Virus record (IMG/VR): IMGVR_UViG_2565956946_000004
Strand: one strand, 5' to 3'
Source of the DNA: an uncultured virus (IMG/VR IMGVR_UViG_2565956946_000004)
Taxonomy: Duplodnaviria; Heunggongvirae; Uroviricota; Caudoviricetes
Length of the DNA stretch: 64,000 nucleotides
In this document: piece by piece, positions 30,960 to 61,753 of the stretch
How the letters are laid out: each line of letters begins with the position of its first letter
Numbering within the stretch: position 1 is the stretch's first letter
The notes under the pieces: generated by a model
Databases searched by the model: none
What the model saw: only the letters and a program-made list of their open reading frames with translations
Told to the model about the DNA's origin: nothing
Program-made: the position numbers and the translations under genes

Positions 30960-31475
30960 ATGACCCTTAAAATCGAAATGGTTGAATACATGATCTGTGA
31001 CTCAAGTTCGGGCGGCAAAGATTATATGCTTATCCATGCGTATAACACCCAAACTGGCGCGGGTTGGGTTAGAGGATATTACGGGAAGTTATCCGGGCGG
31101 TTTCAAGAAGTGGTTTATCTTTTTAAGGATGCGCGCTCAGCCAAAGAGCATCTTTCAAAAGTGATTGATGAGAAAAAATCAAAAGGCTACACCTCACACA
31201 CGCCTGAAGAACGCAAATTGGCAAACACGCTATTTGGAAAATTTAGAGACCTTTGCGCACACGAAATTGTGGTGAGAAGACCACATATGATCGAATTTAA
31301 CGCAAACAGAATAATGAAGGCGACATTAAGTCAATTTTTGGCAGATGACTACCTTGAATACCTTTTTGGGGTTATGGATGACCAATACGCAATGCCGACT
31401 GTGCCAGTATCAAAAGCATCAGAAGCGAAACGTATCCAAGAAAGCTATGGCTCCAAGTGGGGTGCGTGGTCATGA
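30960..31475 (+). CDS. Hypothetical protein, WGR-like N-terminus, C-terminal WGAWS
   Basis: KDY...RGYYGKL...IDEKKSKGY pattern; ends SYGSKWGAWS*. Confidence 0.7.
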   Translation: MTLKIEMVEYMICDSSSGGKDYMLIHAYNTQTGAGWVRGYYGKLSGRFQEVVYLFKDARSAKEHLSKVIDEKKSKGYTSHTPEERKLANTLFGKFRDLCAHEIVVRRPHMIEFNANRIMKATLSQFLADDYLEYLFGVMDDQYAMPTVPVSKASEAKRIQESYGSKWGAWS

Positions 31476-31894
31476 TCAGGCTTAAAACTGGCGGTTCATA
31501 CATGAGCCATGACTTTTCTACAACTAGATCCATCCATCTTGTTAGCGTCGGTGACGACCCTAACAAATGTGTGGTTTTTGATTTTATTGTCAATCAGAAA
31601 GCAAATGGCAAATTCAAGATCACAGACAATAGTTTTGTCTGCCGCATTAATGAGGGGATAAATCACATTGCGCTTGAGGTGGAAAAATTAGGAAAAGACG
31701 AAAAATTTGCAGGCTCCAAAGCAATTCAGTTTGGACTATCTGCATTTAAAAACAACTCAATGCTATCGACTGAGGACATTGTTCAACGAATCGGCAAGTT
31801 TTTGACTGAAGCCAAGATAAGAATCTTGGTGTCAAAAGCAAGCTCAAGATATGAGACGGAAGGCAAGAGTTTGGTTTGGGGTAGTTGGAGTTAA
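31472..31894 (+). CDS. Hypothetical protein with C-terminal WGSWS
   Basis: ATGA overlap with the upstream gene; ends SLVWGSWS*. Confidence 0.7.
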   Translation: MIRLKTGGSYMSHDFSTTRSIHLVSVGDDPNKCVVFDFIVNQKANGKFKITDNSFVCRINEGINHIALEVEKLGKDEKFAGSKAIQFGLSAFKNNSMLSTEDIVQRIGKFLTEAKIRILVSKASSRYETEGKSLVWGSWS

Positions 31895-31976
31895 TTATGG
31901 CTATCAAACCGCATCTATTTAAACCCCTACTGTCGCTTAATAAAATGACCATACCGAAACAAACAATGAGTATTCA

Positions 31977-32576
31977 ATGAATAATCGTATAGAAATAGTG
32001 CCATTCGTCGATACAGCAATTTACCCTGTTGAAGCTTCTGCTCAAGGGGACAATGCTTTTTACCTTGAATATTGTGGCGCTTCTGGTTATCGCCCAGCTT
32101 ATGCTTCGTGCTTAAATCGCATACGCGAGATAGAGGCGGGTAAATTGCTTCCATCTGTTGAGTCTGGTTGCTCAGCTGCAATATGCAATAAAGTTTGTCA
32201 GGCGTTGACTATGCGCCAAGAAGAGAAGCGGAATGGTGCAGCGATCTACTACATCAACCGAGTTAAGATGCGCCAGAACGTGCGTCACAACGCAGCTCAA
32301 TACGGTATTAAAATTTCCGATATCGTAATTAAAAACGACATTAAAAAGCCAACTCTTACGCCGTCAGAGCCAGTAAATACATTCGAAGTTGGTTCGATTG
32401 CAGACGCCATAAATAGTCGCATTGCTAAGGAAATGAAGTCGGAAAATCAACAATCCGCTTTAAATTCCACTGAGAAACCTTTATCATCACATAAAGATCA
32501 GTCAGTACTGACTGTTAAAAAAGGTATGTCATTAATAGATATTGCCAAAGCAAAGCGACAACAATTAAGTGTTTGA
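31977..32576 (+). CDS. Hypothetical Cys-containing protein
   Basis: 199-aa ORF; carries an internal operator copy near its 3' end. Confidence 0.7.
   Translation: MNNRIEIVPFVDTAIYPVEASAQGDNAFYLEYCGASGYRPAYASCLNRIREIEAGKLLPSVESGCSAAICNKVCQALTMRQEEKRNGAAIYYINRVKMRQNVRHNAAQYGIKISDIVIKNDIKKPTLTPSEPVNTFEVGSIADAINSRIAKEMKSENQQSALNSTEKPLSSHKDQSVLTVKKGMSLIDIAKAKRQQLSV
32498..32515. promoter_or_regulatory. Operator TCAGTCA-GTAC-TGACTGT (intragenic, upstream of the ligase block)
   Basis: Perfect core motif. Confidence 0.75.
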
Positions 32577-32596
32577 GTATTAGTGGTAGGTAATTT

Positions 32597-32854
32597 ATGA
32601 CTGATTTATATCAAATATTAAGTTGCCAAGTTGCTGAGGTTAAGCGAACTAAAGGCGCAACACGAAAAGACATCATTAACGCCCTTAAAAAATTGATGGG
32701 TGATGAGTTGGGTAACTTTGCTGCGGCGAAGCATTTAGACGATGAGCAAATCAGAGCAATGGTTGCTGATTTAGCAAGTGGCGTTGAGCTGATAGCTCAG
32801 CAAAGAGTTTCAAATATAGAGCGCATTGAGCGTGATTATCTGGCCCGTTTATAA
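32597..32854 (+). CDS. Hypothetical protein (85 aa)
   Basis: ORF with RBS; followed by GGCCCGTT-TAT-AACGGGCC hairpin. Confidence 0.65.
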   Translation: MTDLYQILSCQVAEVKRTKGATRKDIINALKKLMGDELGNFAAAKHLDDEQIRAMVADLASGVELIAQQRVSNIERIERDYLARL

Positions 32855-32882
32855 CGGGCCAATGTAAAAATTGGAGTAACAA

Positions 32883-34286
32883 ATGGCAACTTTGGAGCCA
32901 GTCTTAACACAAACATTCAATAGCGACCTTGTGTGTCAGGCGCTCAATGAAATAGCTCAAGAGAGTTCTAAAAATAAAAAACTGGAAATGGTGAGCCACT
33001 ACATAAGCAATCCTTTATTTAAAGAAGTGTGTTCACTTGCTTATAACCCATTCCGCATATTTGGTATTCTCCCGGATAAAGATGCAAAGGGCACTGGTGA
33101 GCTATGGTTTGACGAAGCGGATACTTTAGAAATCATATACGCACTAGAAAAACGTGAACTTACAGGCAATGCAGCTCGCGAAGCGGTTCGTTGTCAGCTG
33201 GCTCAATTGAGCGAAAAGTCAGGCGATCTATTTATTCGAATTTTGCGTAAAGACTTACGCGCAGGCTTTAGTGAATCAACAATCAATAAAGCATGCAAAG
33301 GCTTAATTCCTGAATTTCCATATCAACGTTGTTCTTTGCCTAAAGATGCAAAATTTGATACGTGGACATGGGGCAAAGGCGTTTTCTCACAAGAGAAAGC
33401 AGACGGCATGTACGCGAACGGAAATAAACGTGCAAATGAACTACTTTCATTTGTCTCTCGTCAAGGCTCTCAATTCCCTATGGATGAGTTTAAAGACATC
33501 GTAGAAGAAGCGGAGCTTTTACTTCAGCCTAACTTCCAGTATCACGGCGAGCTACTTGTCGAGCGTGATGGTGTAGAGCTTCCACGAGAGATTGGCAATG
33601 GCATTCTTAATAGCGTCTTGAAGGGCGGTAAATTTGCCGAGAATGAGCGTCCAATTTATAAAGTGTGGGATTTCATCCCTTTTGAGGCGGTAGTGCCAAA
33701 AGGGGTATTTAAGGCGCCATACGCTAATCGTTTTCGCGCACTGTTTAACATGGTTAAGGGCGGTAAATACATTCGCATCATCGAGACCCGTATTGTAAAT
33801 AGCCTAAGCGAAGCATATAAGCACTGTGAAGAGAAGCTGCTATTAGGAAAAGAAGGCACGGTTATTAAAAACTCAACAGCAATTTGGAAAGACGGCACAA
33901 GTAAAGAACAAATCAAATTAAAGCTTGAGGCTGACTGTGAGTTAGAAGTCGTGGGTATCAATGAAGGCAAGGCTGGATCGAAAAATGAAGGAAGGGCAGG
34001 GGCATTAAGTTGCAAGTCAGCGTGCGGTCAATTAATTGTCGACGTCGCCGTTAAAAATGAAAAATTACGTGACGAATTGGACGCAAACCCGGAAGACTGG
34101 ATTGGTCGAATCATTACTGTGCGTTCGAACACGATTCTAAAACCTTCAGCGAGCAGTCCTAATTATTCGTTGTTTTTGCCACGCATGGTTGAAGACTGTT
34201 ATCGCTTAGACAAAACGGTTGCAGACGATCTAGCGCGCATTTATGAGCAATTTGATAACGCGATTAAAAACGTACAGGTAGGTTAA
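32883..34286 (+). CDS. lig: ATP-dependent DNA ligase
   Basis: EKADG adenylation motif, YHGEL, VWDF, EGTVIKN, KLK, LFLPR. Confidence 0.9.
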   Translation: MATLEPVLTQTFNSDLVCQALNEIAQESSKNKKLEMVSHYISNPLFKEVCSLAYNPFRIFGILPDKDAKGTGELWFDEADTLEIIYALEKRELTGNAAREAVRCQLAQLSEKSGDLFIRILRKDLRAGFSESTINKACKGLIPEFPYQRCSLPKDAKFDTWTWGKGVFSQEKADGMYANGNKRANELLSFVSRQGSQFPMDEFKDIVEEAELLLQPNFQYHGELLVERDGVELPREIGNGILNSVLKGGKFAENERPIYKVWDFIPFEAVVPKGVFKAPYANRFRALFNMVKGGKYIRIIETRIVNSLSEAYKHCEEKLLLGKEGTVIKNSTAIWKDGTSKEQIKLKLEADCELEVVGINEGKAGSKNEGRAGALSCKSACGQLIVDVAVKNEKLRDELDANPEDWIGRIITVRSNTILKPSASSPNYSLFLPRMVEDCYRLDKTVADDLARIYEQFDNAIKNVQVG

Positions 34287-36544: not shown

Positions 36545-36606
36545 AAGGCCCTGATTATCTCAGGGCCTTTTCTTTGCATAAAAAAGCCGCCCAAAGGCGA
36601 CTTTCT
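36545..36606. terminator. Back-to-back terminators between convergent operons
   Basis: AAGGCCCTGA-TTATC-TCAGGGCCTT-TTCTTT (+) and AAAAAAGCCGCC...GGCGACTTT (-). Confidence 0.75.
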
Positions 36607-36618
36607 CAAATGGCTTTC

Positions 36619-40278: not shown

Positions 40279-42336
40279 ATGAACAATCGCATTGCTAATT
40301 TACGCAACGCTATCGTTGCAATCACAAATGCTCTCATTGAGAAAAAAATTGAAGTAACTCAAATAGGTATGGAAGCATACGTCAAGTCTGACATTAATGG
40401 AAATCCGATTTCTATCAATTTACCGTACCTTTCGGACAATGCATCAGAAGAACTTATAAGAGCAATACAGGGATTCTTAGATCATGAGGTTGCACATGTT
40501 CTTTTCTCTGATTTTAAAGCCCTAAATAGCGTTGGCGATTACCTTTTAAAAAGTCTCGCAAATATTTTAGAAGACGCCCGCATCGAAAAATGCATGGCTG
40601 AAAAATTTAGAGGTTCTGGTTCTAACTTAGATCACACCGCACACTTCTTTTTAGAAGAGATGATTACTCCGAAATTTAAAGAAGTTATGGCGCATCCCGA
40701 TGTTGATGAAACAAAGATTATGGGTATCTTGGCCACTCCATATCTCCGCAGCCTTTCGGGTCAATCAACTTTTGAAATTTATATGCGCGACAAGATTCAT
40801 TTGTTGCCAAATATTCATGCTGCCATCAAACACCTTGCGCCACAACTTCAATCAATGCAGTCGTCTCAGGATGCCGTTCGCTTAGCTAAAGAAATTTACA
40901 AAGCTCTAAAAAGTCCCGAAGACGAGAAACAACCCCCGCAAGATCAACAACAGGAAGAAGAATGTGATCAACAAGGAAATGGTCAATCTAACGAAGATGA
41001 AGATGAGCAACCAGGCGGCTCAGGTGGCGGAAATTCTGACGAAGATGAAGGTTCAGATGCAGACGGTCAGCAAGGCGCTGGTGAGGGAGATGATGGCGAT
41101 TCTGAAGAAGATGGTGCCGGTGAGTCTTCAGGCGATGCTGATGAGCAAGACGAACAAGGTGATGGAGGTAAAGGCGGTCAATCCGAAGATGAGGATGGTG
41201 GGAACGAATCAGATGGTAAAAGTGAGCGCCACCAAAATAAGTCTGACAAATCGAATGGTAAGGGCGACAGCAATGAAGGCAACGAGTCTAGCGACTCTGA
41301 GAATCAGACGTCAGAAAAGAAAAAGGAATTAAGAAAGCTTAATTTAGACGCTAAGGCGATTTTGCAAGAGATCGACAAGGAGTCAGCGAATGATTTTGAC
41401 GCCTCGTTTGCCGTTCAGTTAAGCAATGAAGCAAAAGACTTTGCTTGCACTGCGCCATATCTCGTTTATACAAACAGATATGACGTTATCGAAACATTAA
41501 AAATTGGCAGAAATTACAAATCGTCCTTTATGGATGATTTAGATAGAGCAACCAATAAAATTACGGGAACAATTCAAAAAGATTTGGAACGTCTTATGGT
41601 TGCTCGATCAGCAAGAACATGGGAGAACGGTTTACGGCAAGGAAAAATTAACCAGGCGTCACTTTCTCGTTTAGCTGTTAGAGACGACCGTATATTCCGT
41701 CGCAAACAAGAGAATCGTTCCAAAGATGTCGCTGTAACCCTCTTAATTGACTGTTCAGGTTCAATGAAGGGCGAACGCATTAACACAGCCTCTCAAGCGT
41801 CATATGCAATGTCATCTGTTCTTGACCGTCTCAACATTAATCATGAAGTTATTGGATTCACAACTAAAAACGGTGATCCACACGCAAAAGAAAGCTTTAC
41901 GCATAATGGCAAAACGATTCGATACACAAGAACGGAAGGTTTATATATGCCAGTCATTAAAGGGTTTAATGAGCGCTTAACGCTCGAAAACCGCCATCGT
42001 TTTGCATGGTTGCCTCATGTTAGGTTCTTAAACACGAATGTTGATGGGGAGTGTCTTCAAATTGCGGCACAGCGGCTAAGCGCTCAAAAAGAAGCACGGA
42101 AAATCATTATGGTGTTAAGTGATGGTAATCCAAATGGTAGCGGCCCGACCCCAACGCTAAACAAACACCTCAAAACAACCGTTCAGGAAATTTCTCGCTC
42201 AGGATTTGAAGTTATTGGAATTGGAATCAATACGCAAAGCGTAAAAGAGTTCTATCCAAAAAATGTCGTTTTGAGATCTGTTGCCGACTTACCTAACACG
42301 GTTATTGGCGAGCTTCGCTCATTACTTCTCAAGTAA
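40279..42336 (+). CDS. CobT-like vWA domain protein
   Basis: N-terminal DHEVAH motif, long acidic Gly/Asp/Glu linker, MIDAS DCSGS and VLSDG. Confidence 0.85.
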   Translation: MNNRIANLRNAIVAITNALIEKKIEVTQIGMEAYVKSDINGNPISINLPYLSDNASEELIRAIQGFLDHEVAHVLFSDFKALNSVGDYLLKSLANILEDARIEKCMAEKFRGSGSNLDHTAHFFLEEMITPKFKEVMAHPDVDETKIMGILATPYLRSLSGQSTFEIYMRDKIHLLPNIHAAIKHLAPQLQSMQSSQDAVRLAKEIYKALKSPEDEKQPPQDQQQEEECDQQGNGQSNEDEDEQPGGSGGGNSDEDEGSDADGQQGAGEGDDGDSEEDGAGESSGDADEQDEQGDGGKGGQSEDEDGGNESDGKSERHQNKSDKSNGKGDSNEGNESSDSENQTSEKKKELRKLNLDAKAILQEIDKESANDFDASFAVQLSNEAKDFACTAPYLVYTNRYDVIETLKIGRNYKSSFMDDLDRATNKITGTIQKDLERLMVARSARTWENGLRQGKINQASLSRLAVRDDRIFRRKQENRSKDVAVTLLIDCSGSMKGERINTASQASYAMSSVLDRLNINHEVIGFTTKNGDPHAKESFTHNGKTIRYTRTEGLYMPVIKGFNERLTLENRHRFAWLPHVRFLNTNVDGECLQIAAQRLSAQKEARKIIMVLSDGNPNGSGPTPTLNKHLKTTVQEISRSGFEVIGIGINTQSVKEFYPKNVVLRSVADLPNTVIGELRSLLLK

Positions 42337-42374
42337 TTCGTGAGCAAGATAGTCAGTTGGGGTTATTTAAATAA

Positions 42375-42392
42375 TCAGTCAGTACTGACTAT
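42375..42392. promoter_or_regulatory. Operator TCAGTCA-GTAC-TGACTAT
   Basis: Perfect core upstream of the MoxR ATPase. Confidence 0.85.
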
Positions 42393-42475
42393 CTTTTCCT
42401 AGAAGATATTAGTATCATTCACGCATATTCAAAAGACAAAGTTTTGTCAAAATCTATCTTTGTGAGATTTAAAAA

Positions 42476-43675
42476 ATGACTGTAAATCAAAATGAAACAA
42501 TCGCATGCGAAATTTGTAAAGCTCAAGTGCATTCTATACCTCATCACCTTAATACTGATCACCCAAAGGTGACTTTTGAGAATTATAAATCTTCTTATCC
42601 TAATGCACCGACCCAATCGCCAGCTTTAATCGAGCGCATCAGAATGAAAGCGGAAGAGCAGAAGAAAAAGGCTCAAGAACAAGCGGCAGCTCAGCCAGCT
42701 CAACCAAGTTCGGTAATTCAAAAGCCGGGTTCGTTCGTCGCTAAAGACACCTTAGTTGCGCGTAATTTACATGAAATTTTTGAAATCTCTGGCCCAGAAG
42801 GTAAAAACGCACAGGGTGATCCAATCCCAGTATCTTGTATTGAGAACTCATCATCACCAGACATGGTGCCTGAAATTAACAACACATACGTTTTTGAAAT
42901 TGATGTGTTGAAAAATACCCTTATCGCGCTTGAACTGAATATTCCTTTTTATGTTTGGGGCCACAAAGGTACTGGTAAAACAGAACTTATTGATCAGGTG
43001 GCTGCAAGAACTGGTCGACCAGTCGTTCGTATTCAGCACACCGCCAATACAGAAGAAGCACATATCGTCGGCATGTGGACTGTAGTTGATGGAAACATGA
43101 CTTTCCAACTTGGGCCGTTGGCGTTAGCGATGAAGCATGGCTGGTTATATCTTGCTGACGAATATGACTTTGCGCAGCCAAGTGTATTGTCTGTTTATCA
43201 AGCTGTTATGGAAGGTAAGCCGCTCAACATTAAAGAAGCTGACCCTGAAAATCGCATTATCAAACCTCATCCAAATTTCCGCTTCTGTGCGACGGGTAAC
43301 ACCAATGGTACGGGTGATGAAACAGGTTTGTATTCAGGAACAACCATTCAAAACACGGCGAACTATGACCGCTTTGGCATGGTGATGGAAAAGCATTACA
43401 TGTCTAAAGAAGATGAAGCAAAAGCCATTGTACGTCACACACAAATTGACCCAATAGATGCGAAAAATCTAGTTGAGTTTGCAACTAAGGTGCGCGCTGC
43501 TTATAGCAATAAAGAAATTAGCGATACGATTTCTTTGCGCTCTCTAATCTATGCGGCGAAATTAGGTGTGATGCGCGGCTCTATGAATACGGGTATCTCT
43601 TTAGCTTATGCCAACAAACAATCTTCCCGCGATTACGAAATTGTGAAGGGAATTGCGCAGCGAGTGTTCGGGTAA
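42476..43675 (+). CDS. CobS/MoxR-family AAA+ ATPase with N-terminal zinc finger
   Basis: CEIC..H..H; Walker A GHKGTGKT; Walker B LADE; HPNFRFCATGNT; DRF. Confidence 0.88.
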   Translation: MTVNQNETIACEICKAQVHSIPHHLNTDHPKVTFENYKSSYPNAPTQSPALIERIRMKAEEQKKKAQEQAAAQPAQPSSVIQKPGSFVAKDTLVARNLHEIFEISGPEGKNAQGDPIPVSCIENSSSPDMVPEINNTYVFEIDVLKNTLIALELNIPFYVWGHKGTGKTELIDQVAARTGRPVVRIQHTANTEEAHIVGMWTVVDGNMTFQLGPLALAMKHGWLYLADEYDFAQPSVLSVYQAVMEGKPLNIKEADPENRIIKPHPNFRFCATGNTNGTGDETGLYSGTTIQNTANYDRFGMVMEKHYMSKEDEAKAIVRHTQIDPIDAKNLVEFATKVRAAYSNKEISDTISLRSLIYAAKLGVMRGSMNTGISLAYANKQSSRDYEIVKGIAQRVFG

Positions 43676-49981: not shown

Positions 49982-50869
49982 ATGACTCAATTCGTTTTAG
50001 ACCCAGCTAAATTAATGGAAACCGCAGCAAATAAGCAAAACGCTATTCGCTCGCGTGAGAAAACTCTCAAACCTAAAGATGGGTCGAATCGTTATGTATT
50101 ACTTCCGGGGTGGGGTTGGAAGCAAGGTAAGCAAGACGTGTGGTTCCACGATTTCGGTATGCACTTTATTAAAGATGCAAACGGTGATCTACAGTCTACT
50201 TATGTTTGTTTAGATAAGACATTTGGCAAGGATTGCCCGATCTGTGGCGCTTTAAAACAAGCTGCTAACATAGCTACAACAGAAGCTCAAGTCGAAGCAT
50301 TAAAAGAGTGTGGTTCACGCCAAACTTATTTAATGAACGTTTTGGCTTTAGATTCTGACCGTCCAAACGATCCGCAAATCTTAGAAGTGCCTAAAACAGT
50401 ATTTAGCGCAATCTTTGATGTATTGGCTAAATGGGGTGCGCGTTTATTTGATCCTAACGGTTCACAAGTCATTGTGATTAACCGAAACGGCTCAGGTATG
50501 AACACCAAATACACTGTTTTACCAGATGCCGAAACCAAACCAGTTCCTCCACAAGTTTACGAAAAACTTAACAATCTTGATGAATATGTTTCTCAAGAAA
50601 ATGACGAACGTTTACAACGCTCGTTAGGACACGTTCAACAAGTTGTAGGTTTGTTACCGCCCGCTCAAAGCAACGATACGCCTCGTACTGCACCTGCTGC
50701 AATTGGCTTAGCTGCTGGCGGCGCTGCGCAACCTGCATATCAACAGACCGCAGAGGAAATTTCGTATACCGAAGTTACTCAGCCTGCACAACCTCAAACG
50801 GTTGAGCATGCCCCGATCAACCTTAACACTGATTTAGAAGCGTTATTAGACCTCGATATTCCAGTTTAA
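49982..50869 (+). CDS. T4 gp32-like single-stranded DNA-binding protein
   Basis: H..C..CPIC zinc motif, NGSGMNTKY, acidic tail DLEALLDLDIPV. Confidence 0.75.
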   Translation: MTQFVLDPAKLMETAANKQNAIRSREKTLKPKDGSNRYVLLPGWGWKQGKQDVWFHDFGMHFIKDANGDLQSTYVCLDKTFGKDCPICGALKQAANIATTEAQVEALKECGSRQTYLMNVLALDSDRPNDPQILEVPKTVFSAIFDVLAKWGARLFDPNGSQVIVINRNGSGMNTKYTVLPDAETKPVPPQVYEKLNNLDEYVSQENDERLQRSLGHVQQVVGLLPPAQSNDTPRTAPAAIGLAAGGAAQPAYQQTAEEISYTEVTQPAQPQTVEHAPINLNTDLEALLDLDIPV

Positions 50870-53569: not shown

Positions 53570-53923
53570 ATGAAACATTATGTTTTGGATTTTGTACCAC
53601 CACTACAAGGCATGGATGATCACTTCAATACAATTCGTTTGGGGGTTACATGGTCAAAGAAACTTGCCGCTGGTGATCGAGTGTATCTCCAAAATTCAAA
53701 AACTAAAATGATCGAAGGTTTAGCGATTGTTGATCGTGTAATTGTCGGGAAGCTTGGCGAGCTATGCGCTTATTACGGTGCTGATAATCACACCGAAATT
53801 GACAGCGAAGACAAATGCAGAAGCGCAGAGCGCTTATATAAATTAACCTTAAAGCTTTACGGGCCACACATCGCAAGCGCAATGAAGAAATCAACAGTTA
53901 TTTATTTAAGGCGAATAGAGTGA
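53570..53923 (+). CDS. ASCH/PUA-like domain protein
   Basis: NTIRLG...GDRVYL...A.V..V pattern. Confidence 0.5.
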   Translation: MKHYVLDFVPPLQGMDDHFNTIRLGVTWSKKLAAGDRVYLQNSKTKMIEGLAIVDRVIVGKLGELCAYYGADNHTEIDSEDKCRSAERLYKLTLKLYGPHIASAMKKSTVIYLRRIE

Positions 53924-54318
53924 CTATAAAATTTGATGAGAAGTTTCCTGAAGGGAAATACAAAGGGCGAACACCGGCTGAACTTATTCTCATGCTTCAG
54001 AATGACTCCGATTTTGAAGGTGTTGATTACTTATTGTGGTTGAGAAAATTTCGAGCGGGTAAGTTTGGTGGTTTGGCAAGTACATTTGACGAAACCGTCA
54101 ACGCAATTATCGACTTAATTGTTTTTGAAGTGCCGGAGTTAAAGAAAAGATATCCAGTTACCGTCTACACAAAGCTAGAAGCCAAAGAAATTTTCGACAA
54201 ATATCATAAAGAAGCTCAAGAAGCCGCAAAACAGGAAGCGATTAGAAAAGAAATGAAAGCTCGCGCAGATCGCGAGCGAGCGGAACGCTACAAAGGCAAA
54301 TGGGGGAGCTGGGCATAA
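53920..54318 (+). CDS. Hypothetical protein (FPEGKYKG motif), C-terminal WGSWA
   Basis: GKYKG...YLLWL resembles DUF3820-like motif; ends YKGKWGSWA*. Confidence 0.7.
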   Translation: MTIKFDEKFPEGKYKGRTPAELILMLQNDSDFEGVDYLLWLRKFRAGKFGGLASTFDETVNAIIDLIVFEVPELKKRYPVTVYTKLEAKEIFDKYHKEAQEAAKQEAIRKEMKARADRERAERYKGKWGSWA

Positions 54319-54755
54319 TGTTAGAAGAACAGTTAGAGCCAGATCTAAACGTTGTTGAGCATCTTTTTCAACAAGGCAATTATGTTTACCGTTTAATGTT
54401 TTTAAGCAATGCAAATGAAACCAAAATGGCTTTTTTGAAGGGTCTCTATAATTGGCGAGAACCACATGCGCCTCCAATGGAAACAATCCTTTTAACATCT
54501 GAAAACACAGATAAAGAAGAGCTGTTCGCCAATGGAAAGACTTTCATTGAGGAAGTCAAAAGAGATGTAGCTGGAAAGGCCGAATATATTTGGTGGGCAT
54601 CGCCTCTTTATTTTAACGATGACAGTCAAATGTGTATGTTAGAGACGAAACTAACTAGAACAGTTGGTTTTTATTATAAAAATGCGGTTTTGAAGTTCTT
54701 TCGAGATCCACCCGTTCCGAAACGCAACAATCCAAATTGGGGAGCTTGGTCATGA
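54318..54755 (+). CDS. Hypothetical protein, C-terminal WGAWS
   Basis: TAATG overlap; ends PKRNNPNWGAWS*. Confidence 0.7.
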   Translation: MLEEQLEPDLNVVEHLFQQGNYVYRLMFLSNANETKMAFLKGLYNWREPHAPPMETILLTSENTDKEELFANGKTFIEEVKRDVAGKAEYIWWASPLYFNDDSQMCMLETKLTRTVGFYYKNAVLKFFRDPPVPKRNNPNWGAWS

Positions 54756-55270
54756 AATACATCCCGAATCTAAATGCTGAGCTAAGCGTCTTAGAATACC
54801 GATTTAGAAACGAGTATGAAAACAGCCGTCTAATGATTATCTCCACGTTAGACAGAACTAAGATGGCTTATGTCAAAGGTCACACGCGTCGAGACGTACC
54901 AGAATTAGGCTCTCAGCGACCCGAAGTGAAATTATCCAATGATGAAGAGCATTTCAATGTTGGGGAGCTGTACAGCTATGCCCTTGATGAAATTCACACC
55001 TACATGCGCGAACACAATGATGCCACTCATCATAAATGTGAACGCGAGGAGTACACTGTATTTTTTAATAACTCGTTTAGAGCGGGAGAGCTGATTGGAA
55101 AGATAGAAGGGGCTGTTGGTGGCTCAAAAGCCAGAGAAGTGCTGTGCTTTCTTGGGGCGTATTTTGCGCTCACCAAAGAAAGTGTAGATCAACCCGAAGT
55201 TCCAAATCCAAAAAGAACAAATCCTAATTATTCAAAAAGAACAAATCCTAATTGGGGGTTATTTTCATGA
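54752..55270 (+). CDS. Hypothetical protein, C-terminal WGLFS
   Basis: ATGA overlap; ends PKRTNPNYSKRTNPNWGLFS*. Confidence 0.7.
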   Translation: MKYIPNLNAELSVLEYRFRNEYENSRLMIISTLDRTKMAYVKGHTRRDVPELGSQRPEVKLSNDEEHFNVGELYSYALDEIHTYMREHNDATHHKCEREEYTVFFNNSFRAGELIGKIEGAVGGSKAREVLCFLGAYFALTKESVDQPEVPNPKRTNPNYSKRTNPNWGLFS

Positions 55271-55632: not shown

Positions 55633-55640
55633 CCTATTAT

Positions 55641-55658: not shown

Positions 55659-55702
55659 CTTTTAAAATGTTCATATCTGAAACAAACAAAGAGTTTAAAG
55701 AT

Positions 55703-56313: not shown

Positions 56314-56345
56314 TCAGTCAGTACTGACTTATTTATGTCTATAAT
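56314..56345 (+). promoter_or_regulatory. Operator TCAGTCA-GTAC-TGACTTA with downstream TATAAT
   Basis: Perfect core at 56314-56331; TATAAT 56340-56345. Confidence 0.85.
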
Positions 56346-56374
56346 TATCACACAATTTTGTGGAAACTATATCT

Positions 56375-57469
56375 ATGAAACCTTATGGCATTCAGTCAGA
56401 TTCGCATCACCATAATTGGAGTGCGTTTTCACACACTACTGCTAACGGTATCAATAACCGTTTAGAAGGGTGTTTAAACGAAGTTCGCCGTCTTGCAGCA
56501 GAAGTTAAAAGCGCAGGCGGCAACACTATTTATCACACAGGTGATTTATTTCATGTGCGCGGGCAGATTGCGCCCTCAGTACTAAACCCTACGCTTGATG
56601 TTTACCGCCAATTGATTGAAGAAGGTTTTATCATTCGTATATTAGCTGGCAACCATGATCTTGAAGATCGTCATGTCACACGCACCGGCTCTGCAGTAAC
56701 AGCATTAGAAGGTATCGGTTGTCAAATCGTTAATAAGCCTACTTTCTTCAATGATGATCGTGTTGTGATGATACCGTGGATTGAAAGCGTAAAAGGGCTT
56801 AAAGACGAGATAGAAAAGGCTAAAAAGCACATCGAATCAATGCCATCCCCTCCGCCTTTGCGCTCTATGGAAAGCATAAGTGATTGGACGTTAATGATTC
56901 ATGCGCCTGTAGACGGCGTTATTGCGGGATTACCTGAGCATGGACTTACCGCAAGTGATCTTGAGCAATATGGATTTAAGCTCGTATTTAGCGGTCACTA
57001 CCATCATCACAAACAACTTAGCGAAACTGTTTATTCGGTAGGTGCATTGGCTCACTACACATGGTCTGACGTTGGCCATAAAGCAGGATTCTTAGTTGTA
57101 AATAACACCGATGTGCGTTGGTACAAATCCCATTTACCTGCCTTTGTTGAAATTGATGGCTCAATGGATGAATTAGACATTCAAGCTGTTGTGCCTGGTA
57201 ACTATGTCCGCGCAAAAATCAAGATCGTTAAACAAATCGAAATTGAGCAGTTCCGCAAATACCTTACAGATATTGGCGCTCAAGGTGTGACGATCATTGC
57301 GTCCAAACCAGTTGCAGACGTTCAACGTGCAAACGCAGCGGTAAAAGCTGGCGCGTCAATTGAGTCGTCCGTAACTCAATTTATTACTAACTCGCCGTTA
57401 AACAGCCCTCAACTTGATGCGCTGTGCCAATCAATTTTGACAGAAGCGCGCATGGAGGTTGCTGAGTAA
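56375..57469 (+). CDS. SbcD/Mre11-like metallophosphoesterase nuclease
   Basis: SDSH, GDLFH, GNHD, SGHYH motifs. Confidence 0.88.
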   Translation: MKPYGIQSDSHHHNWSAFSHTTANGINNRLEGCLNEVRRLAAEVKSAGGNTIYHTGDLFHVRGQIAPSVLNPTLDVYRQLIEEGFIIRILAGNHDLEDRHVTRTGSAVTALEGIGCQIVNKPTFFNDDRVVMIPWIESVKGLKDEIEKAKKHIESMPSPPPLRSMESISDWTLMIHAPVDGVIAGLPEHGLTASDLEQYGFKLVFSGHYHHHKQLSETVYSVGALAHYTWSDVGHKAGFLVVNNTDVRWYKSHLPAFVEIDGSMDELDIQAVVPGNYVRAKIKIVKQIEIEQFRKYLTDIGAQGVTIIASKPVADVQRANAAVKAGASIESSVTQFITNSPLNSPQLDALCQSILTEARMEVAE

Positions 57470-59421
57470 TGGAATTTTTAACACTCAAGATTAATAACTT
57501 CTTAACGATTGGCGAAGCCCGTCTTGATTTAGCTAATCGTGGATTATTGTTGGTGCAAGGTGAAAACAAAGACAACTCATCCGCAGACTCAAATGGTTCA
57601 GGTAAGTCATCCATTGTTGACGCTTTATGTTGGTGCCTCTACGGAACTACCGCAAGAGACGTTACAGGAGATTTAGTCATTAATAAGACGGCCAAAAAGG
57701 ATTGTGCGGTCGAACTCACGATTCATGACAATGGACAGTGTTACAAAATCGCTCGTCACCGCAAACATGCGACACACAAAAACGCGCTGATTGTCTTAAA
57801 AACCGATATTTACGGCAATGAGTTACCTAATGGCAACATCACGAAAGGCACTGATAAAGAAACTCAGGAGCTTGTAGTTGATATTGTTGGTTCTACGCTA
57901 GATGTCTTTATGTCATCCGTATATGCGGGTCAGGAAATGATGCCAAACCTCCCCGCCCTTACGGATAAAAACCTGAAAGTCTTAATTGAAGAGGCGGCTG
58001 GCATTCAGGTTTTAGAGCAAGCGCACACCATTGCAAAACGTAAGTTAGCCGAAGTTAAAGCGAAGCTCTCAAATAAGCTCACAATACGCGATAATTTTGC
58101 GACGGTACTTGCGACCATGCAGAGTCAACTGGCTGAGACACAAGCGAAATTAAAGCAGTTTGACGACACAAAAGAGTCACGCGCTAGAGCTGTGTTGAGC
58201 GAAGCGTTACCGCTGAAGAAGGCTATTGAAGACATCAAAGTCCAAATGGGCAATACCGACATTAACGCTCTCAATGCCGAGAAACAAAGTATTGAAACCG
58301 CGATTAGTAAAGCGGAAGATTTAGTTAATGAGGCAAAGAAATTAACTCAGATCCGTGATGACTTGGGTATCAAGTACCGCATCACTAATAATAATTATTC
58401 TTCTCTTAAAACTAATTTAAATAATTTAGCGACCAAAATTCGAGGCATTGACGGTTTAGTTGGTACGCCTTGCACACAGTGCGGTAAAGAATTTTGCGCT
58501 AGTGATTTACAGCAAGCGCGGTCGGTTCAAATGAATCAAGCCCAAGTTGCAAAACAAGATGCGCTGAAAGCCAAAGCCGAAATGGAACAGGTGAAAGCTG
58601 AATTTGAAGCGGCTGAGAAGAACCTCAATGACTTCCTTCAAAACAATTCGCTGGACGTTCGCAAGCTCTATGCTGACAAGGCTGCTGTTGAAGGCGCAAT
58701 TGCTGCATTTACTTCGTCAAGCTCTGAGATTGACCGCAATCTCAAGGACATTGAAAGAATCAAAAAGCGCGCAAAAGATGTAATGAATGAGGCGAATCCA
58801 TTCTCAGCAATGGAAGCTGACCAACAAGCAAAAATTGCGGATTACATCGCAAAGAACTCTGCAATTGATCAGGAAGTGCAGGAATTGCAAGCGTTAGTTG
58901 AATTACATGAACATGCGGTTTTGATTTATGGCCCATCAGGTGTGCGCGCTCATATTCTCGATACAGTTACGCCGTTCTTGAATGAGCGAACCGAAGACTA
59001 TCTCGGCGCACTTACTGACGGCAACACTCATGCGGTTTGGTCGACCTTGACGCTTAACAGCAAAAAAGAGCTTAAAGAAAAATTCACAATCGATGTCCGT
59101 GACAATACGGGCGGAGAGTCATTTAAAGGTTTGAGCGGCGGTGAAAAACGTAAGGTTCGTTTAGCTACCGCTTTAGCACTGCAAGATCTGGTTGCTAGTC
59201 GCGCAACCAAGCCGATTAGTTTGTTCATCGGTGACGAAATTGATGATGCATTGGATAAATCAGGTCTTGAACGTCTTATGGGTGTGCTTGAGCGAAAAGC
59301 ACGAGAACGAGGCACCGTGATCGTTGTGTCGCATTCAGAGCTGCGAGATTGGATTGACGATGTTGTGGTAGTCACTAAGGAAAATGGTTACTCAACTGTG
59401 AGCGGTGCAAATCTCGTTTAA
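57469..59421 (+). CDS. SbcC/Rad50-like ATPase
   Basis: NGSGKS, coiled coil with CTQC zinc hook, LSGGE signature, FIGDEIDDALD, VVSH. Confidence 0.9.
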   Translation: MEFLTLKINNFLTIGEARLDLANRGLLLVQGENKDNSSADSNGSGKSSIVDALCWCLYGTTARDVTGDLVINKTAKKDCAVELTIHDNGQCYKIARHRKHATHKNALIVLKTDIYGNELPNGNITKGTDKETQELVVDIVGSTLDVFMSSVYAGQEMMPNLPALTDKNLKVLIEEAAGIQVLEQAHTIAKRKLAEVKAKLSNKLTIRDNFATVLATMQSQLAETQAKLKQFDDTKESRARAVLSEALPLKKAIEDIKVQMGNTDINALNAEKQSIETAISKAEDLVNEAKKLTQIRDDLGIKYRITNNNYSSLKTNLNNLATKIRGIDGLVGTPCTQCGKEFCASDLQQARSVQMNQAQVAKQDALKAKAEMEQVKAEFEAAEKNLNDFLQNNSLDVRKLYADKAAVEGAIAAFTSSSSEIDRNLKDIERIKKRAKDVMNEANPFSAMEADQQAKIADYIAKNSAIDQEVQELQALVELHEHAVLIYGPSGVRAHILDTVTPFLNERTEDYLGALTDGNTHAVWSTLTLNSKKELKEKFTIDVRDNTGGESFKGLSGGEKRKVRLATALALQDLVASRATKPISLFIGDEIDDALDKSGLERLMGVLERKARERGTVIVVSHSELRDWIDDVVVVTKENGYSTVSGANLV

Positions 59422-59437
59422 TCCCGTCTAAACATAC

Positions 59438-59475
59438 CGCTAATACGCACAGATTGCGCGTATTAGCGCGTTTTT
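59438..59475 (+). terminator. Intrinsic terminator
   Basis: CGCTAATACGC...GCGTATTAGCG stem followed by TTTTT. Confidence 0.7.
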
Positions 59476-59521
59476 CGTTAAGGGCATACAAATTCACACA
59501 TTAATTGCAAGGAGAGCATTT

Positions 59522-60154
59522 GTGAACATCTATGAAGCTATTGAGGATGAAGTCCTCGCTCAGCTAGAAAAGGAGGACAGTTTAATTCAGCAGCATTTGA
59601 ATTTGTGCGCAAATGAGGATGCAAAACTCGCTTCAAAAGTGAAGGAAATCCTTTCTGGCGTTGTGCATCAAATGAATGCTGAACTTGATATGAATGCTAA
59701 CGACTCTGAATTTTCCCCTCTGTCATTTGCTAACGAGTTTATGTTGGCTCAGGGTGGGAATATTCAGGTTCGAAAAATCTATAAAAGCGGTACGGACTCT
59801 TGGACGCAGCGAGAGTTTTTGGGTGGAGAATCATTCCTTTTGTTTAAGGCTGGCATAAATGAAAGCCTCATTGAGCAAATGGACTTTTGGAAAGTTCAAG
59901 AGGACATCCTTGATTTAATTCACCTCCGCTTCAGACCCGCTTTTGCTGCCGATTTTGCAGAAATCATGGTTGATATAAATCGTGGCCGTCAGCTTTTTAA
60001 CGGATTGCATGAAACGCTGACGGAAGTTTTCGACAGCTTGTCATTTAGACCAGCGATCAAATCAATCCAAGAGGCAAAAGCGGAAATCAAGAAGCTCCGC
60101 TGTGTGCGCGAGCAAAAGATTCAAAGTTTAAAAAACAATGTGGCAGTGTGGTAA
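59522..60154 (+). CDS. Hypothetical protein ending in Trp
   Basis: RBS AAGGAG, GTG start; ends KNNVAVW*. Confidence 0.7.
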   Translation: MNIYEAIEDEVLAQLEKEDSLIQQHLNLCANEDAKLASKVKEILSGVVHQMNAELDMNANDSEFSPLSFANEFMLAQGGNIQVRKIYKSGTDSWTQREFLGGESFLLFKAGINESLIEQMDFWKVQEDILDLIHLRFRPAFAADFAEIMVDINRGRQLFNGLHETLTEVFDSLSFRPAIKSIQEAKAEIKKLRCVREQKIQSLKNNVAVW

Positions 60155-60157
60155 AAA

Positions 60158-60751
60158 ATGAGTAATACAGTACGCGTAATCGGGATTGACCCATCATTAA
60201 AGAATTTCGGAATCGTAGTTGCCGATGTGAATTTGGATGATCCAGATCTTTCATTCTCTGTTGTGAGCATGAACTTAATTAAATCTGAAGAGAACAAGGC
60301 AACTAAAAAAGTTGTTCGCAAAAACAGTGATGACTTACGCCGGGCAAAATCGCTTCATGATGGTTTAAAAGAAGCTTGTAAGGGTGCTTCATTTGCTATT
60401 TGCGAAGTTCCTGTTGGCTCTCAGTCAGCGCGAGCAATGGTTTCTTACGGTATTTGCATTGGGGTTTTGTCTAGTTGTCCGCTTCCTTTAATTCAAGTCA
60501 CACCGACCGAAGTAAAATTAGCTGGAACCGGCATTAAAACCGCAACAAAGGGCGAAATGATCGAAGCTGCAATGAATGCTCATCCTGAAGCTAAATGGCC
60601 AATGCGAAAAATCAAAGGCGTACTAGAGCCATTAAGTAGTAACGAACATTTGGCAGATGCTACTTTCGCGATTAAGGCAGGTTTGGACACCGACGAGTTT
60701 AAATCTGCAATTCAGATGCTCAAGCAGTTAAAAAATGCCCAACTAAATTAA
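60158..60751 (+). CDS. ruvC: RuvC-like Holliday junction resolvase
   Basis: IGIDPSLKNFG, CE, VTPTEVK...ATKGEMI, HLADA. Confidence 0.82.
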   Translation: MSNTVRVIGIDPSLKNFGIVVADVNLDDPDLSFSVVSMNLIKSEENKATKKVVRKNSDDLRRAKSLHDGLKEACKGASFAICEVPVGSQSARAMVSYGICIGVLSSCPLPLIQVTPTEVKLAGTGIKTATKGEMIEAAMNAHPEAKWPMRKIKGVLEPLSSNEHLADATFAIKAGLDTDEFKSAIQMLKQLKNAQLN

Positions 60752-60767
60752 AAAATTAGGCACTAGA

Positions 60768-60816
60768 TCAGTCAGTACTGACTATACTATTAAGGCGGCG
60801 ATTTGTCGCCTTAATA
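60768..60816 (+). promoter_or_regulatory. Operator TCAGTCA-GTAC-TGACTAT overlapping TATACT, followed by a hairpin
   Basis: Motif at 60768-60785; TATTAAGGCGGCGA/TGTCGCCTTAATA hairpin. Confidence 0.82.
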
Positions 60817-60833
60817 TTTTATTTATTAGGTTT

Positions 60834-61439
60834 TTGGATCACCAACAGATGAGCAATGACAAACTAAAACTCTTTGCAGAAGGAAATCCCGCTCGTGTTA
60901 CCGTTCGGTTAGACCCCCTCGAAAGAGATATTGAAGCCGCACTTAGTTACTCCAAAAGTAAGGCTATGAAAATAGCGGTAAACGAAGGCTTCATTTCCTC
61001 TCAATGCCTGAATTGTCATTGCTTTAAGGTTCAAAGCGAAGTTGTTCGCACTCGCAAGAGCTGGGAGGATGAGCTAAGAGTAACGATAAGATGTGATTCG
61101 CAAACGATTTTTCGACCAGTTATCTGCCCTGCTCCATTAGGCGCAAACGAGCTAACAAACAGCTTATCAAATCTCACATCGAGAGTAAGTGCGGCAGACC
61201 TTTCAGTCAAAGCAAGCGCAAGTGCAATTTCTTCGTTGGTAAGTCGAGTTGATTATGACTCGTTGCGGAATAAAAAAGCTGAATCATGGGATGGCTATTT
61301 TGAACGTGACTCAATTATCGTTCCACCCATAACGCCAAAGAAAACACCTGAAGAGCTAGAAAAAGAGCTTGAAGAAGCCTCAGATGAATCAGTGGGCATC
61401 ACAAAAGATACCCCTCGAACTGGTGGGGTGGCATGGTGA
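60834..61439 (+). CDS. Hypothetical protein ending PRTGGVAW
   Basis: CLNCHC motif; start codon uncertain (60834 TTG or 60849 ATG). Confidence 0.65.
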   Translation: MDHQQMSNDKLKLFAEGNPARVTVRLDPLERDIEAALSYSKSKAMKIAVNEGFISSQCLNCHCFKVQSEVVRTRKSWEDELRVTIRCDSQTIFRPVICPAPLGANELTNSLSNLTSRVSAADLSVKASASAISSLVSRVDYDSLRNKKAESWDGYFERDSIIVPPITPKKTPEELEKELEEASDESVGITKDTPRTGGVAW

Positions 61440-61753
61440 TTCTTCACAGACCTCGCAGCATGGGAAGGTTTGCCTTCAATCAAAAGCTTATAGATCAGCT
61501 CACAAAGGACTTAGCAAGACAAGGTAAAGACGTATGGGTGCCCTCTACCCCCGCCAAGCCGTCATCAAAGGCGATTTACATGGATGAATGGGACTCTATA
61601 GACCCTATGGCGAATGCTTGGGCGAAATCACTGTTCTCAAACATTGTCAAAGACGGAAAAGCAGCAGTGGTGATCGGCGTCGACGAAATCGAACCTGAAA
61701 AGGCTGCTCCGCTTGCTTCAGATAAACCCCGAACAAAAGCATTTGTTTGGTAA
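61433..61753 (+). CDS. Hypothetical protein ending PRTKAFVW
   Basis: Overlaps the upstream stop. Confidence 0.65.
   Translation: MVILHRPRSMGRFAFNQKLIDQLTKDLARQGKDVWVPSTPAKPSSKAIYMDEWDSIDPMANAWAKSLFSNIVKDGKAAVVIGVDEIEPEKAAPLASDKPRTKAFVW

Follow-up and report, generated by a model that had tools for sequence, protein, structure and literature searches.

Five small proteins, all annotated as hypothetical, end in the same kind of peptide, W-G-x-[WF]-[SA], exactly at their stop codons in a 64,000-nucleotide stretch of DNA from an uncultured virus of the Caudoviricetes (IMG/VR record IMGVR_UViG_2565956946_000004; the whole stretch is termed the window here). Distant relatives, whose hosts are alpha-, beta- and gammaproteobacteria, have the tail in the form [WFY]-G-x-[WF] at the very end of the chain, and the tagged genes hold fixed places beside primase/ligase and SbcCD/RuvC, as judged by synteny across the relatives. 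We consider it probable (about 0.72) that the tail is a C-terminal docking peptide which would tether accessory replication and recombination factors to one common hub.

The window is part of an Acinetobacter baumannii phage-plasmid of about 108 kb. Region 53500-61800 is 100% identical to 27 A. baumannii plasmids (104–114 kb), and megablast and tblastn searches of phages and plasmids with this region or with the first tagged protein (tag1, Table 1) returned only these 27 near-identical plasmids and no phage record. Window positions 821-63784 align at 99.98% to positions 36137-99100 of NZ_CP140432.1. The element is regarded as a phage-plasmid because the annotation of this near-identical plasmid record lists terminase, portal, capsid and tail genes in addition to RepB, ParA/ParB and a complete DNA-metabolism module.

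A sequence-only reading of the window had drawn attention to the five ends and to three further proteins that end in Trp. All eight C-termini were confirmed, as was the codon variation reported with them: the Gly codons are GGT, GGT, GGG, GGA and GGG, the final Ser is encoded by TCA three times and by AGT once, and the final Ala by GCA. Virion proteins had been described as lacking the tail, and none carries it.

Table 1. Genes of the window discussed in the text, with positions counted from the first nucleotide of the window
Feature	Position	Strand	Remarks
tag1	30960..31475	+	171 aa, post-primase; ends ...YGSKWGAWS; the window's member of the post-primase family with a predicted WGR domain
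tag2	31472..31894	+	140 aa, hypothetical; ends ...SLVWGSWS; next annotated gene 82 nt downstream
tag3	53920..54318	+	132 aa, hypothetical; ends ...YKGKWGSWA; stop overlaps tag4 start (TAATG)
tag4	54318..54755	+	145 aa (151 aa from annotated start 54300); ends ...NNPNWGAWS; paralogue of tag5
tag5	54752..55270	+	172 aa; ends ...TNPNWGLFS (...KRTNPNYSKRTNPNWGLFS); internal KRTNPN duplication
p210	59522..60154	+	210 aa; ends ...NNVAVW; between SbcC and RuvC-like gene; pre-RuvC family, degenerate tail
p196	60849..61439	+	196 aa; ends ...PRTGGVAW; just 5′ of nrdA; resembles the element's NrdB tail ...TGGALAW
p97	61460..61753	+	97 aa; ends ...PRTKAFVW; just 5′ of nrdA; probable second tail class
Toprim primase	29483..30595	+	Annotation; in all lineages examined, the constant neighbour upstream of the post-primase tail family (synteny)
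ATP-dependent DNA ligase	32883..34286	+	Annotation and synteny; downstream of the post-primase tail proteins
CobT-like vWA protein (40279-42336) and CobS-like MoxR ATPase (42476-43675)	40279..43675	+	Pfam; present in all complete relatives examined
DnaE (Pol III alpha)	45185..48640	+	Internal clamp-binding motif KAQMDLLPGI, canonical-looking, near residue 945
gp32-like single-stranded DNA-binding protein (SSB)	49982..50869	+	Pfam gp32 E = 1.6e-20; acidic C-terminal tail ...DLEALLDLDIPV; candidate hub
SbcD (56375-57469) and SbcC (57469-59421)	56375..59421	+	Annotation; fixed upstream neighbours of the pre-RuvC tail family (19 genome loci)
RuvC-like resolvase	60158..60751	+	phrog_159 E = 6e-50; fixed downstream neighbour of the pre-RuvC tail family (synteny)

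The abundance of such ends is far above what composition predicts. In the 122 intact annotated proteins of NZ_CP140432.1 (31,246 residues), [WF]G.[WF] occurs nine times, and five of the nine occurrences lie within the last four to five residues. Five tailed proteins among 122 compare with 0.037 expected (Poisson P(>=5) = 5.8e-10). When the last six residues were redrawn 20,000 times, three tagged proteins appeared in a single redraw and more than three in none. Proteins ending in Trp are likewise in excess, six of 122 versus 1.4 expected (P = 0.003).

Full-length paralogy does not explain the shared ends. Only tag4 and tag5 form a detectable paralogue pair (BLASTP E = 4e-7), both matching phrog_5427, to which no function is assigned; the other pairs align at the tail only or have E > 0.02. 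Relatives of the element were reached through its UvsY-like protein, through IMG/VR and through DNA patterns, and the IMG/VR genomes among them are designated G002–G006. G002 is a complete genome of 109.7 kb with core genes 85–93% identical to those of the window. Its tag2 homologue is 89% identical and keeps the tail with a GGT to GGG change, and its tag3 homologue, only 55% identical, has an identical tail with GCA changed to GCG. The tag5 orthologue ends in NPNWGAWS and a third G002 paralogue in NTPNWGAWS. G002 retains all the tails of the window and has a sixth tagged paralogue.

Two peculiarities of tag5 can be mentioned here. It has the sole window tail with Phe as the second aromatic residue (WGAWS in the G002 orthologue), and a tandem duplication lies just before the tail (window 55200-55270, ...PNPKRTNPNYSKRTNPNWGLFS). 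Outside the window, a thioredoxin-family protein (NZ_CP140432.1 25804-26157) ends in ...MDSWGF (...MDNWGF in G002), i.e. in W-G-F, which resembles the tail and is shorter.

An upstream P-(K)-R-[TN] element had also been noted in four of the eight proteins. It is present (PKRNN, SKRTN, TPRTG and KPRTK) and is partly kept in the 57–80% identical G002, but it is lineage-specific; the upstream element that is kept widely is N-P-x or Y-x-D-L-G. The A. baumannii element has the canonical tail on tag1 and on four lineage-specific small proteins.

Two protein families carry the tail at fixed positions. The first, represented by tag1, is encoded between primase and ligase, and its members are predicted from Pfam matches to carry a WGR nucleic-acid-binding domain. 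The WGR match (PF05406) of tag1 itself is weak (E = 0.0076, 16.8 bits, with a cut-off of 22), and positional counterparts in Rhizobium phage RHEph10 (58.2 bits), G004 (30.6 bits) and G006 (22.5 bits) are above the cut-off. PF05406 is also found in the source annotation of four Rhizobium-group matches from a profile search with the post-primase family. According to a review on ligases, WGR domains occur fused to bacterial ATP-dependent ligases (PMC7470946), and these fusions fit with the place of the WGR tail protein beside the ligase.

The post-primase alignment (A5) has six invariant columns, and three of these are the W, G and W of the tail. All 16 homologues with intact C-termini end in the tail, as ISWGSW, IAWGTW, ISFGSW, NPRFGMF, NPHFGRF or NANFGRF; of seven other matches, the five retrieved are N-terminal pieces that lack the C-terminus, and the two that were not retrieved are short and labelled partial at source.

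The second family is encoded directly after SbcC, often overlapping it, and before the RuvC-like gene. Single-linkage clustering of BLAST matches joined 16 pre-RuvC proteins, p210 among them. Word-indexed homologue searches with tag1 or p210 as single proteins yielded three clusters each; a profile built from alignment A2 and compared with 1.84 billion representatives yielded 725 clusters at E <= 0.001. Among the best 150 of the 725, 143 end in [WFY]-G-x-[WFY] with at most two further residues, three fit loosely and four do not fit. The seven without the strict motif include p210 itself (NNVAVW) and its Acinetobacter relatives P0005 (NVTVW) and P0034 (EANSW). As for the three proteins that had been listed as ending in Trp, p210 can be kept with the tail bearers as an orthologue that has degenerated to VAVW; p196 and p97 resemble the NrdB tail instead and are discussed below.

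The 143 tails show what is fixed and what varies. The chain stops exactly at the second aromatic residue in 127 of them. The first aromatic is F in 94, W in 34 and Y in 15, and the second is W in 76, F in 66 and Y in one. Before the first aromatic the most common residues are G (54), L (27), N (17), D (11), M (8) and E (5), and before the last they are S (71), M (20), R (16), T (10), A (9) and L (5). Upstream of the pre-RuvC tails the sequence reads Y-x-x-N-P-x or Y-A-D-L-G. In an alignment of 12 members with 22% mean identity (A3), the only invariant columns are Met1 and the Gly of the tail.

The pre-RuvC proteins give few other clues to function. None of seven members scanned had a Pfam match at E <= 0.05, with all weaker rows far under the cut-off, and the PHROG of the family has no assigned function. 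An AlphaFold2 model of p210 (predicted local distance difference test score, pLDDT, of 80) has long N- and C-terminal helices around a beta core, and that of a canonical member, made with an alignment of 150 sequences (pLDDT 89), has N-terminal helices, a small beta core, a 44-residue C-terminal helix and a non-helical tail. The two models agree in overall build. Foldseek comparison of both models with the PDB found no match at E <= 0.001, and a wide VIA fold search returned helical matches only, at Z <= 6.3, which is under the stated noise level of the tool, so that no fold was assigned. A small domain with a long stalk and a conserved terminal peptide, as these models predict, would be the usual build of a tethering motif.

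The tail is spread over a large group of phages and phage-plasmids of about 100–120 kb that encode DnaE, CobS/CobT, a gp32-like SSB, RecA and SbcCD. The order of the DNA-metabolism genes is DnaB-like helicase, primase, small genes and ATP-dependent ligase, then CobT, CobS, DnaE, a UvsY-like protein, the gp32-like SSB, a 5′-3′ exonuclease and RecA (which has an intein here), followed by SbcD, SbcC, a small gene, the RuvC-like resolvase and the alpha and beta subunits of ribonucleotide reductase (RNR). Escherichia phage Cyrano, Pseudomonas phage nickie and RHEph10, of 108–115 kb each, share this order. The arrangement is presumably that of the SSU5-like phage-plasmid group.

Tails are carried by Cyrano, nickie, RHEph10, the IMG/VR genomes G002–G006 and loci anchored by SbcC. 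G004 and G005, both complete, have at least six and at least seven tails, respectively. In IMG/VR, 72 loci matched a scan for DNA that encodes N-P-N-W-G-x-W. Of the matches outside the Acinetobacter lineage, 13 are located at least 100 codons into an open reading frame (ORF); six of them have a stop within one codon and follow either the primase or SbcC, on contigs that reach 117 kb, and the other seven are internal. A scan for NP-x-WG-x-W followed by a stop gave 116 matches, of which 59 end long ORFs and the rest have short upstream frames, as chance predicts. The contexts sampled were again post-primase and pre-RuvC genes.

An SbcC profile led to 19 loci in species-representative bacterial genomes, mostly on contigs of about 100–118 kb. 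The hosts include Xenorhabdus, Morganella, Kluyvera, Paracoccus, Phyllobacterium, Ancylobacter, Magnetospirillum, Roseospira, Chitinibacter, Castellaniella and Paraburkholderia, among others. At least one ORF that ends in the motif is present in 15 of the 19; the remaining four comprise a Kluyvera locus with WATW, an Acinetobacter metagenome-assembled genome with ANSW, one degraded locus and one weak partial match. The bodies of the tagged proteins have diverged between lineages beyond the reach of BLAST. By these comparisons, the conservation of the tail far exceeds that of its carrier proteins.

The ending can also be looked at as a by-product at the nucleotide level, with TGGGG(N) serving as a Shine-Dalgarno sequence, TCATGA as an overlapping stop and start, and the peptide without function. 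The Shine-Dalgarno caveat had been raised in the sequence-only reading, and locally it is correct. Four of the five window tails overlap the next start codon (as ATGA or TAATG) and place TGGGG about 9 nt upstream of it; the overlaps have the form TCATGA or GCATAATG, with tag2 excepted. In addition, three G002 paralogue ends are near-identical as DNA (AAT TGG GGA GCN TGG TCA TGA), and many unrelated RHEph10 proteins end in Ala via GCATGA overlaps, which shows that coupling can shape the last residue.

However, the motif persists where there is no coupling. The next annotated gene is 82 nt from tag2, and in Cyrano the distance to the next gene is 55 nt for the tail ISWGSW and 9 nt for NPIWGTW, the latter gene having its own GGAG after the stop. 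Among 58 tails from 28 sources, 14 have no start codon within 15 nt; the automatically assigned ‘overlap’ class (36 of 58) is inflated, as TGG-TGA itself yields GTG and TTG triplets. A G-rich run 5–10 nt before an overlapping or abutting start is thus a feature of four of the five window tails and is absent from tag2, both Cyrano tails and 14 of the 58 overall. F-type tails (TTC GGN ... TTC) keep the aromatic-G-x-aromatic pattern without a G-run, as in the RHEph10 tails NPRFGMF, ENFGRF and NPNFGRF, which are TTC-GGN coded. The nickie tails are GSGWGAFG, TDFGGWA and YDIGGWA. Furthermore, the C-terminal residues at other ATGA junctions of the same element are quite different, and 143 of the 150 diverse pre-RuvC family members keep the motif. 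The coupling feature exists locally and cannot define the motif. As the sole explanation the by-product is already refuted by the uncoupled and F-type tails, and we regard a functionless peptide as extremely improbable.

Codon usage in the tails is varied. Between the window and G002, whose tagged proteins are 55–89% identical, four tails show synonymous changes in Gly or Ala codons with the residues retained. In the 58 tails the Gly codons are GGA (29), GGG (11), GGT (10) and GGC (8), and the aromatic codons are TGG (81), TTT (16), TTC (15), TAT (2) and TAC (2). Because the tail is kept across relatives with codon change, with Trp/Phe exchange and with no coupled downstream gene, the comparison shows that it is selected as a peptide and not as a ribosome-binding site. 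The central proposal of the sequence-only reading, a protein-level recognition tag common to unrelated proteins, thereby survives deep divergence, codon and aromatic changes and uncoupling, and none of the explanations that it had set against itself, such as Shine-Dalgarno conservation or shared paralogy, accounts for the whole. Most simply, gene overlap would shape only the final Ser or Ala of the Acinetobacter tails, at the TCATGA and GCATAATG overlaps, since elsewhere the second aromatic is exactly the last residue in 127 of 143 tails. As a separate observation, an ATG directly follows the tag2 stop (TAATTATG; window 31895-31976), and G002 has a TAATG overlap there; each opens a frame of less than 40 codons.

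In the reading that we favour, the tail would be a short linear motif, aromatic-Gly-x-aromatic at the extreme C-terminus with no or one further residue, that follows a charged helical linker. The two aromatic side chains would plug into a hydrophobic site on a common replisome or recombination hub, and tethering to this hub would bring accessory factors to their place of action. One client would be the WGR-domain protein encoded between primase and ligase, as a putative sensor of DNA nicks or DNA ends, and a second would be the SbcCD-linked protein encoded before RuvC. Lineage-specific extras, e.g. tags 2–5, would be a third kind. That the tail binds anything, and what it binds, we infer.

With respect to the receptor, we give somewhat less than even odds to a phage-encoded core protein, taking the gp32-like SSB, RecA, SbcCD, RuvC and the pre-RuvC beta core jointly. 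The host beta sliding clamp ranks lower and CobS/CobT much lower; something else takes up the rest. A phage-encoded receptor is favoured because tails are of concerted type within genomes, which would fit a receptor that co-evolves with the phage: three of three RHEph10 tails are F-G-x-F, six of six G004 tails are W-G-x-W, and three of four Paraburkholderia tails end in F. It must be added that this pattern is confounded by recent paralogy. Pfam scans of the rest of the element showed no PDZ, TPR, SH3 or WD40 domain.

Several observations weigh against a docking tail of this kind. In the canonical pre-RuvC model the tail has a pLDDT of about 79, which is above expectation for a free peptide. 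Tail columns covary with columns of the protein's own beta core (ranks 9, 11, 13 and 23–29 of 9,800 pairs by mutual information with average product correction, MI-APC). In four of the five window tails the codons also provide the G-run of a coupled start, and the DNA there has two uses. A search for hub residues that change along with W- or F-type tails carries little weight either way: they were found only at background level in six proteins, 0.3–2.1% of columns (SbcD 7 of 337, gp32-like SSB 4 of 244, RuvC 2 of 186, SbcC 4 of 624, RecA 2 of 326 and exonuclease 1 of 294), and the SbcC tree, made by a quick method, has only two independent switches. Finally, in the form in which the hub is the host clamp, the tail fails two of three key positions of the clamp-motif consensus.

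The covariation could reflect self or homo-oligomeric contact, a core that acts as a receptor, or merely subfamily structure. Perhaps, then, the tail serves self-association, or the pre-RuvC beta core is the docking site for all tails in a genome. The covariation and the pLDDT of the tail are consistent with this, as is the fact that every tail-bearing locus has a pre-RuvC family member at the anchor position; moreover, in the Acinetobacter lineage the canonical tail is borne by five other proteins and is gone from the pre-RuvC protein itself. However, the covariation is confounded by the subfamilies NP-x-FG-x-F and ADLGFGSW, which mark the same columns, and the loci were picked via SbcC, so that presence of the family is by design. 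We consider this explanation quite unlikely.

A related proposal, which is a sub-case of the hub reading, is that the tail is a non-canonical clamp-binding motif and brings its carriers to the host beta sliding clamp. Five of five complete elements have no DnaN gene, and five host genomes that carry such an element have a single DnaN each. The DnaE of the phages keeps a canonical internal clamp motif where one is expected, as seen in an alignment of four phage DnaE proteins. Known clamp motifs are short, often C-terminal and aromatic-ended. Many tails read N-P-[LIMN]-[WF]-G, and W-G is present in the natural clamp motif of mycobacterial ImuB, given as 352-QLPLWG-357 in PMC10421592. A preprint (bioRxiv 10.1101/2025.08.20.671105) describes the end-processing enzyme RecBCD as also binding the clamp by such a motif, and gives the consensus as Q-phi-x-[LM]-[FL].

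Comparison with this consensus is less favourable. Gln, which the consensus has at the first position, is not one of the six most common residues before the first aromatic in the 143 tails, and the window has K, V, K, N and N there. Leu or Met precedes the terminal residue in 25 of 143 tails. The third position, a terminal aromatic or hydrophobic residue in an exposed terminus, is present in the 143 tails, with a tail predicted to be non-helical in the model. The aromatics are at i and i+3, and the canonical hydrophobic pair is spaced differently. Tails differ between sister phage clades whose hosts are closely related Enterobacterales (WG[ST]W versus [FM]GSF), which a conserved host cleft would not predict, and the long-ORF C-terminal matches examined in the IMG/VR scans all come from this phage group. 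The clamp is therefore an unlikely receptor.

A C-terminal degron is another conceivable role, by which a host or phage protease (ClpXP, ClpAP, Lon or Tsp-like) would keep the proteins short-lived, e.g. in plasmid-state lysogeny. The strict C-terminal place, with 127 of 143 tails ending at the second aromatic, is what a degron would have; the tail is also hydrophobic and aromatic and is found on several unrelated proteins of one temporal gene class. However, a dedicated pocket would match the high specificity (invariant Gly, N-P-x turn) more closely than a promiscuous protease would, and neither the annotation nor Pfam scans show a protease gene linked to the tagged genes. To our knowledge, C-terminal degrons such as ssrA (LAA) and the basic tails of the MuA type are unlike this tail. 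We give the degron very little credence.

The sequence-only reading had suggested the routing of cargo or effector proteins to the CobT-vWA/CobS-MoxR pair, to a capsid-loading or ejection pathway, or to a host protease. CobT and CobS are indeed encoded in all complete tail-bearing genomes examined, in the same module and beside dnaE, and MoxR-type AAA+ rings and the metal-ion-dependent adhesion (MIDAS) sites of vWA domains can engage tails or carboxylates. The proposed co-occurrence with the vWA/MoxR pair was found in every complete genome examined, but it does not discriminate: some 15 other core genes behave likewise, with DnaB, primase, DnaE, SSB, exonuclease, RecA, SbcCD and RuvC co-occurring equally with the tail. 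Furthermore, the free carboxylate shifts by one residue between lineages (ends in W, WS, WA and FG), which speaks against a strictly recognised carboxylate. Around the tagged genes are genes of replication and recombination and not virion genes; two of the families are positionally fixed, and one is predicted to carry WGR. Sorting of cargo or effectors is thus unsupported, as are the partners named for it, and delivery to CobS/CobT or into the capsid is very unlikely.

A more far-reaching version of the docking reading is that tail and receptor together form the phage's own ‘tool-belt’, which would rely on neither the sliding clamp nor SSB tails. A single receptor, for example the pre-RuvC beta core or another core protein of these phages of about 110 kb, would recruit changing and fast-evolving accessories such as sensors of nicks or ends, cofactors of nucleases and possibly factors for host takeover or counter-defence. 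We regard this version as doubtful.

That many unrelated DNA-metabolism proteins may share one C-terminal peptide is known from clamp-binding motifs and phage replisome tails. The beta-clamp motifs (QL[SD]LF; Q-phi-x-[LM]-[FL]; QLPLWG in ImuB) are hydrophobic or aromatic peptides of five to six residues, often at the extreme C-terminus, by which many unrelated DNA-metabolism proteins dock on one hub. The terminal aromatic is described as essential for the known motif. The tail differs from them in that it has no conserved Gln, has its aromatics at i and i+3 around an invariant Gly, and mostly has a small or polar residue before the last aromatic.

In phage T4, the tails of gp43, gp33 and gp55 bind the gp45 clamp, and in T7 the acidic, Phe-ended tails of gp2.5 and gp4 bind gp5. 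There, too, several phage proteins with one C-terminal tail compete for, or hand over at, one replisome site. However, those tails are acidic or Leu/Phe-rich and have known receptors, whereas the present tail is a non-acidic aromatic-Gly-x-aromatic peptide, and its carriers are accessory proteins and not the polymerase, helicase or SSB.

The C-terminal tip of bacterial SSB, DDDIPF, organises a replication and repair interactome. This is also a short C-terminal peptide, and the gp32-like SSB of the element ends in ...LDLDIPV. The arrangement is the reverse, since there the single hub bears the tail and its many partners have the pockets, and here many clients carry the tail. The RepB-family initiator of the element (window 25577-26425) ends in ...NNDDDPELPF (...DEDPELPF in G002); this end and that of the gp32-like SSB resemble the SSB tip and may be further docking tails.

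Eukaryotic break factors offer a further likeness. Nbs1 binds Mre11 by NFKxFxK, the tails of Nbs1, ATRIP and Ku80 bind phosphatidylinositol 3-kinase-related kinases (PIKKs), and XLF and APLF have Ku-binding motifs. These are short aromatic or basic tethers near the C-terminus; N-[FW]-x-x-[FW] resembles N-F-K-x-F, and one of the tail families is encoded directly after SbcD and SbcC, the homologues of Mre11 and Rad50. There is no homology and the organisms are different, so this is a lead only.

No description of the motif was found in full-text literature searches, judged by listings and abstracts. The logic of docking tails is known, but for this motif, its carriers and its receptor there appears to be no earlier description. 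A seven-residue tail that has outlasted its carrier proteins points to an unmapped protein–protein contact, kept across phages of alpha-, beta- and gammaproteobacteria and across hundreds of protein clusters. The phage group is large and of medical relevance, with SSU5-like phage-plasmids in Enterobacterales and Acinetobacter. Discovery of the receptor would at once give a context to the WGR protein, the SbcCD-linked protein and the extra tagged genes. If it is the host sliding clamp, the clamp-binding repertoire would be widened, and if it is phage-encoded, it would be a new hub. Should the phage's own tool-belt exist, it would amount to a type of modular docking not yet described in phage DNA metabolism.

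The proteins p196 and p97 probably represent a second, separate tail class. They adjoin nrdA, and their ends resemble that of the element's own NrdB, which is encoded outside the window (NZ_CP140432.1 100774-101766; G002 36564-37556) and ends in ...TGGALAW. Similar likenesses are seen in relatives. In nickie, NrdB ends in ...GLEW, and nrdA and nrdB flank the genes of two small proteins that end in PEW and VKW; in G005, NrdB ends in ...GALQW and the protein before NrdA in ...NAGIW; and in RHEph10, NrdB ends in ...DDEF and the adjacent glutaredoxin in ...DDDF. Since the C-terminal tail of the RNR small subunit is a known handle for the large subunit, the second class may be aimed at NrdA, where mimicry of the NrdB tail would allow the proteins to dock on or regulate the enzyme. 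The RNR small-subunit tail is the likely model for this terminal-Trp class and not for W-G-x-W.

Other features of the element can be described briefly. In the DnaE proteins of the phage-plasmids a block [KR]-[AD]-Q-x-[DE]-L-[LM]-[PG]-[GN]-[IL] is conserved around residue 945, presumably at the site of the internal clamp motif of Escherichia coli Pol III alpha. Two proteins were considered as a possible clamp. The 368-aa protein encoded after DnaE was rejected, its C-terminal part matching proteins annotated as UvsY-like mediators. A 246-aa protein encoded just 5′ of the helicase was set aside, as it has no Pfam match, PHROG function or Atlas match, and its conserved blocks gave no hint of a clamp. 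This protein (window 26541-27281) is a candidate replication factor, with 26–32% identity in all relatives examined and the conserved blocks KWFDYR.M.P..AT, W..RQ.AD and LPRP; it belongs to phrog_2500, which is without function. Between this gene and the helicase is encoded a 179-aa protein (window 27350-27889) with a C-terminal Hfq/Sm-like domain (Pfam Hfq, 27.7 bits), for which BLAST found a match only in G002 among the relatives.

The RecA-like recombinase (window 52001-53497, 498 aa) has Pfam Intein_splicing and PT-HINT matches within the RecA domain. Its G002 orthologue is 343 aa and only the N-terminal part aligns, which suggests that the intein is absent there. Window positions 1-820 have no alignment to NZ_CP140432.1, which points to a local replacement in the head-tail connector region. 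At the other end of the alignment, a copy of ISAba1 splits nrdA in NZ_CP140432.1 (99119-100209); the window has no insertion at this place (63784-63776 junction), and nrdA reads through.

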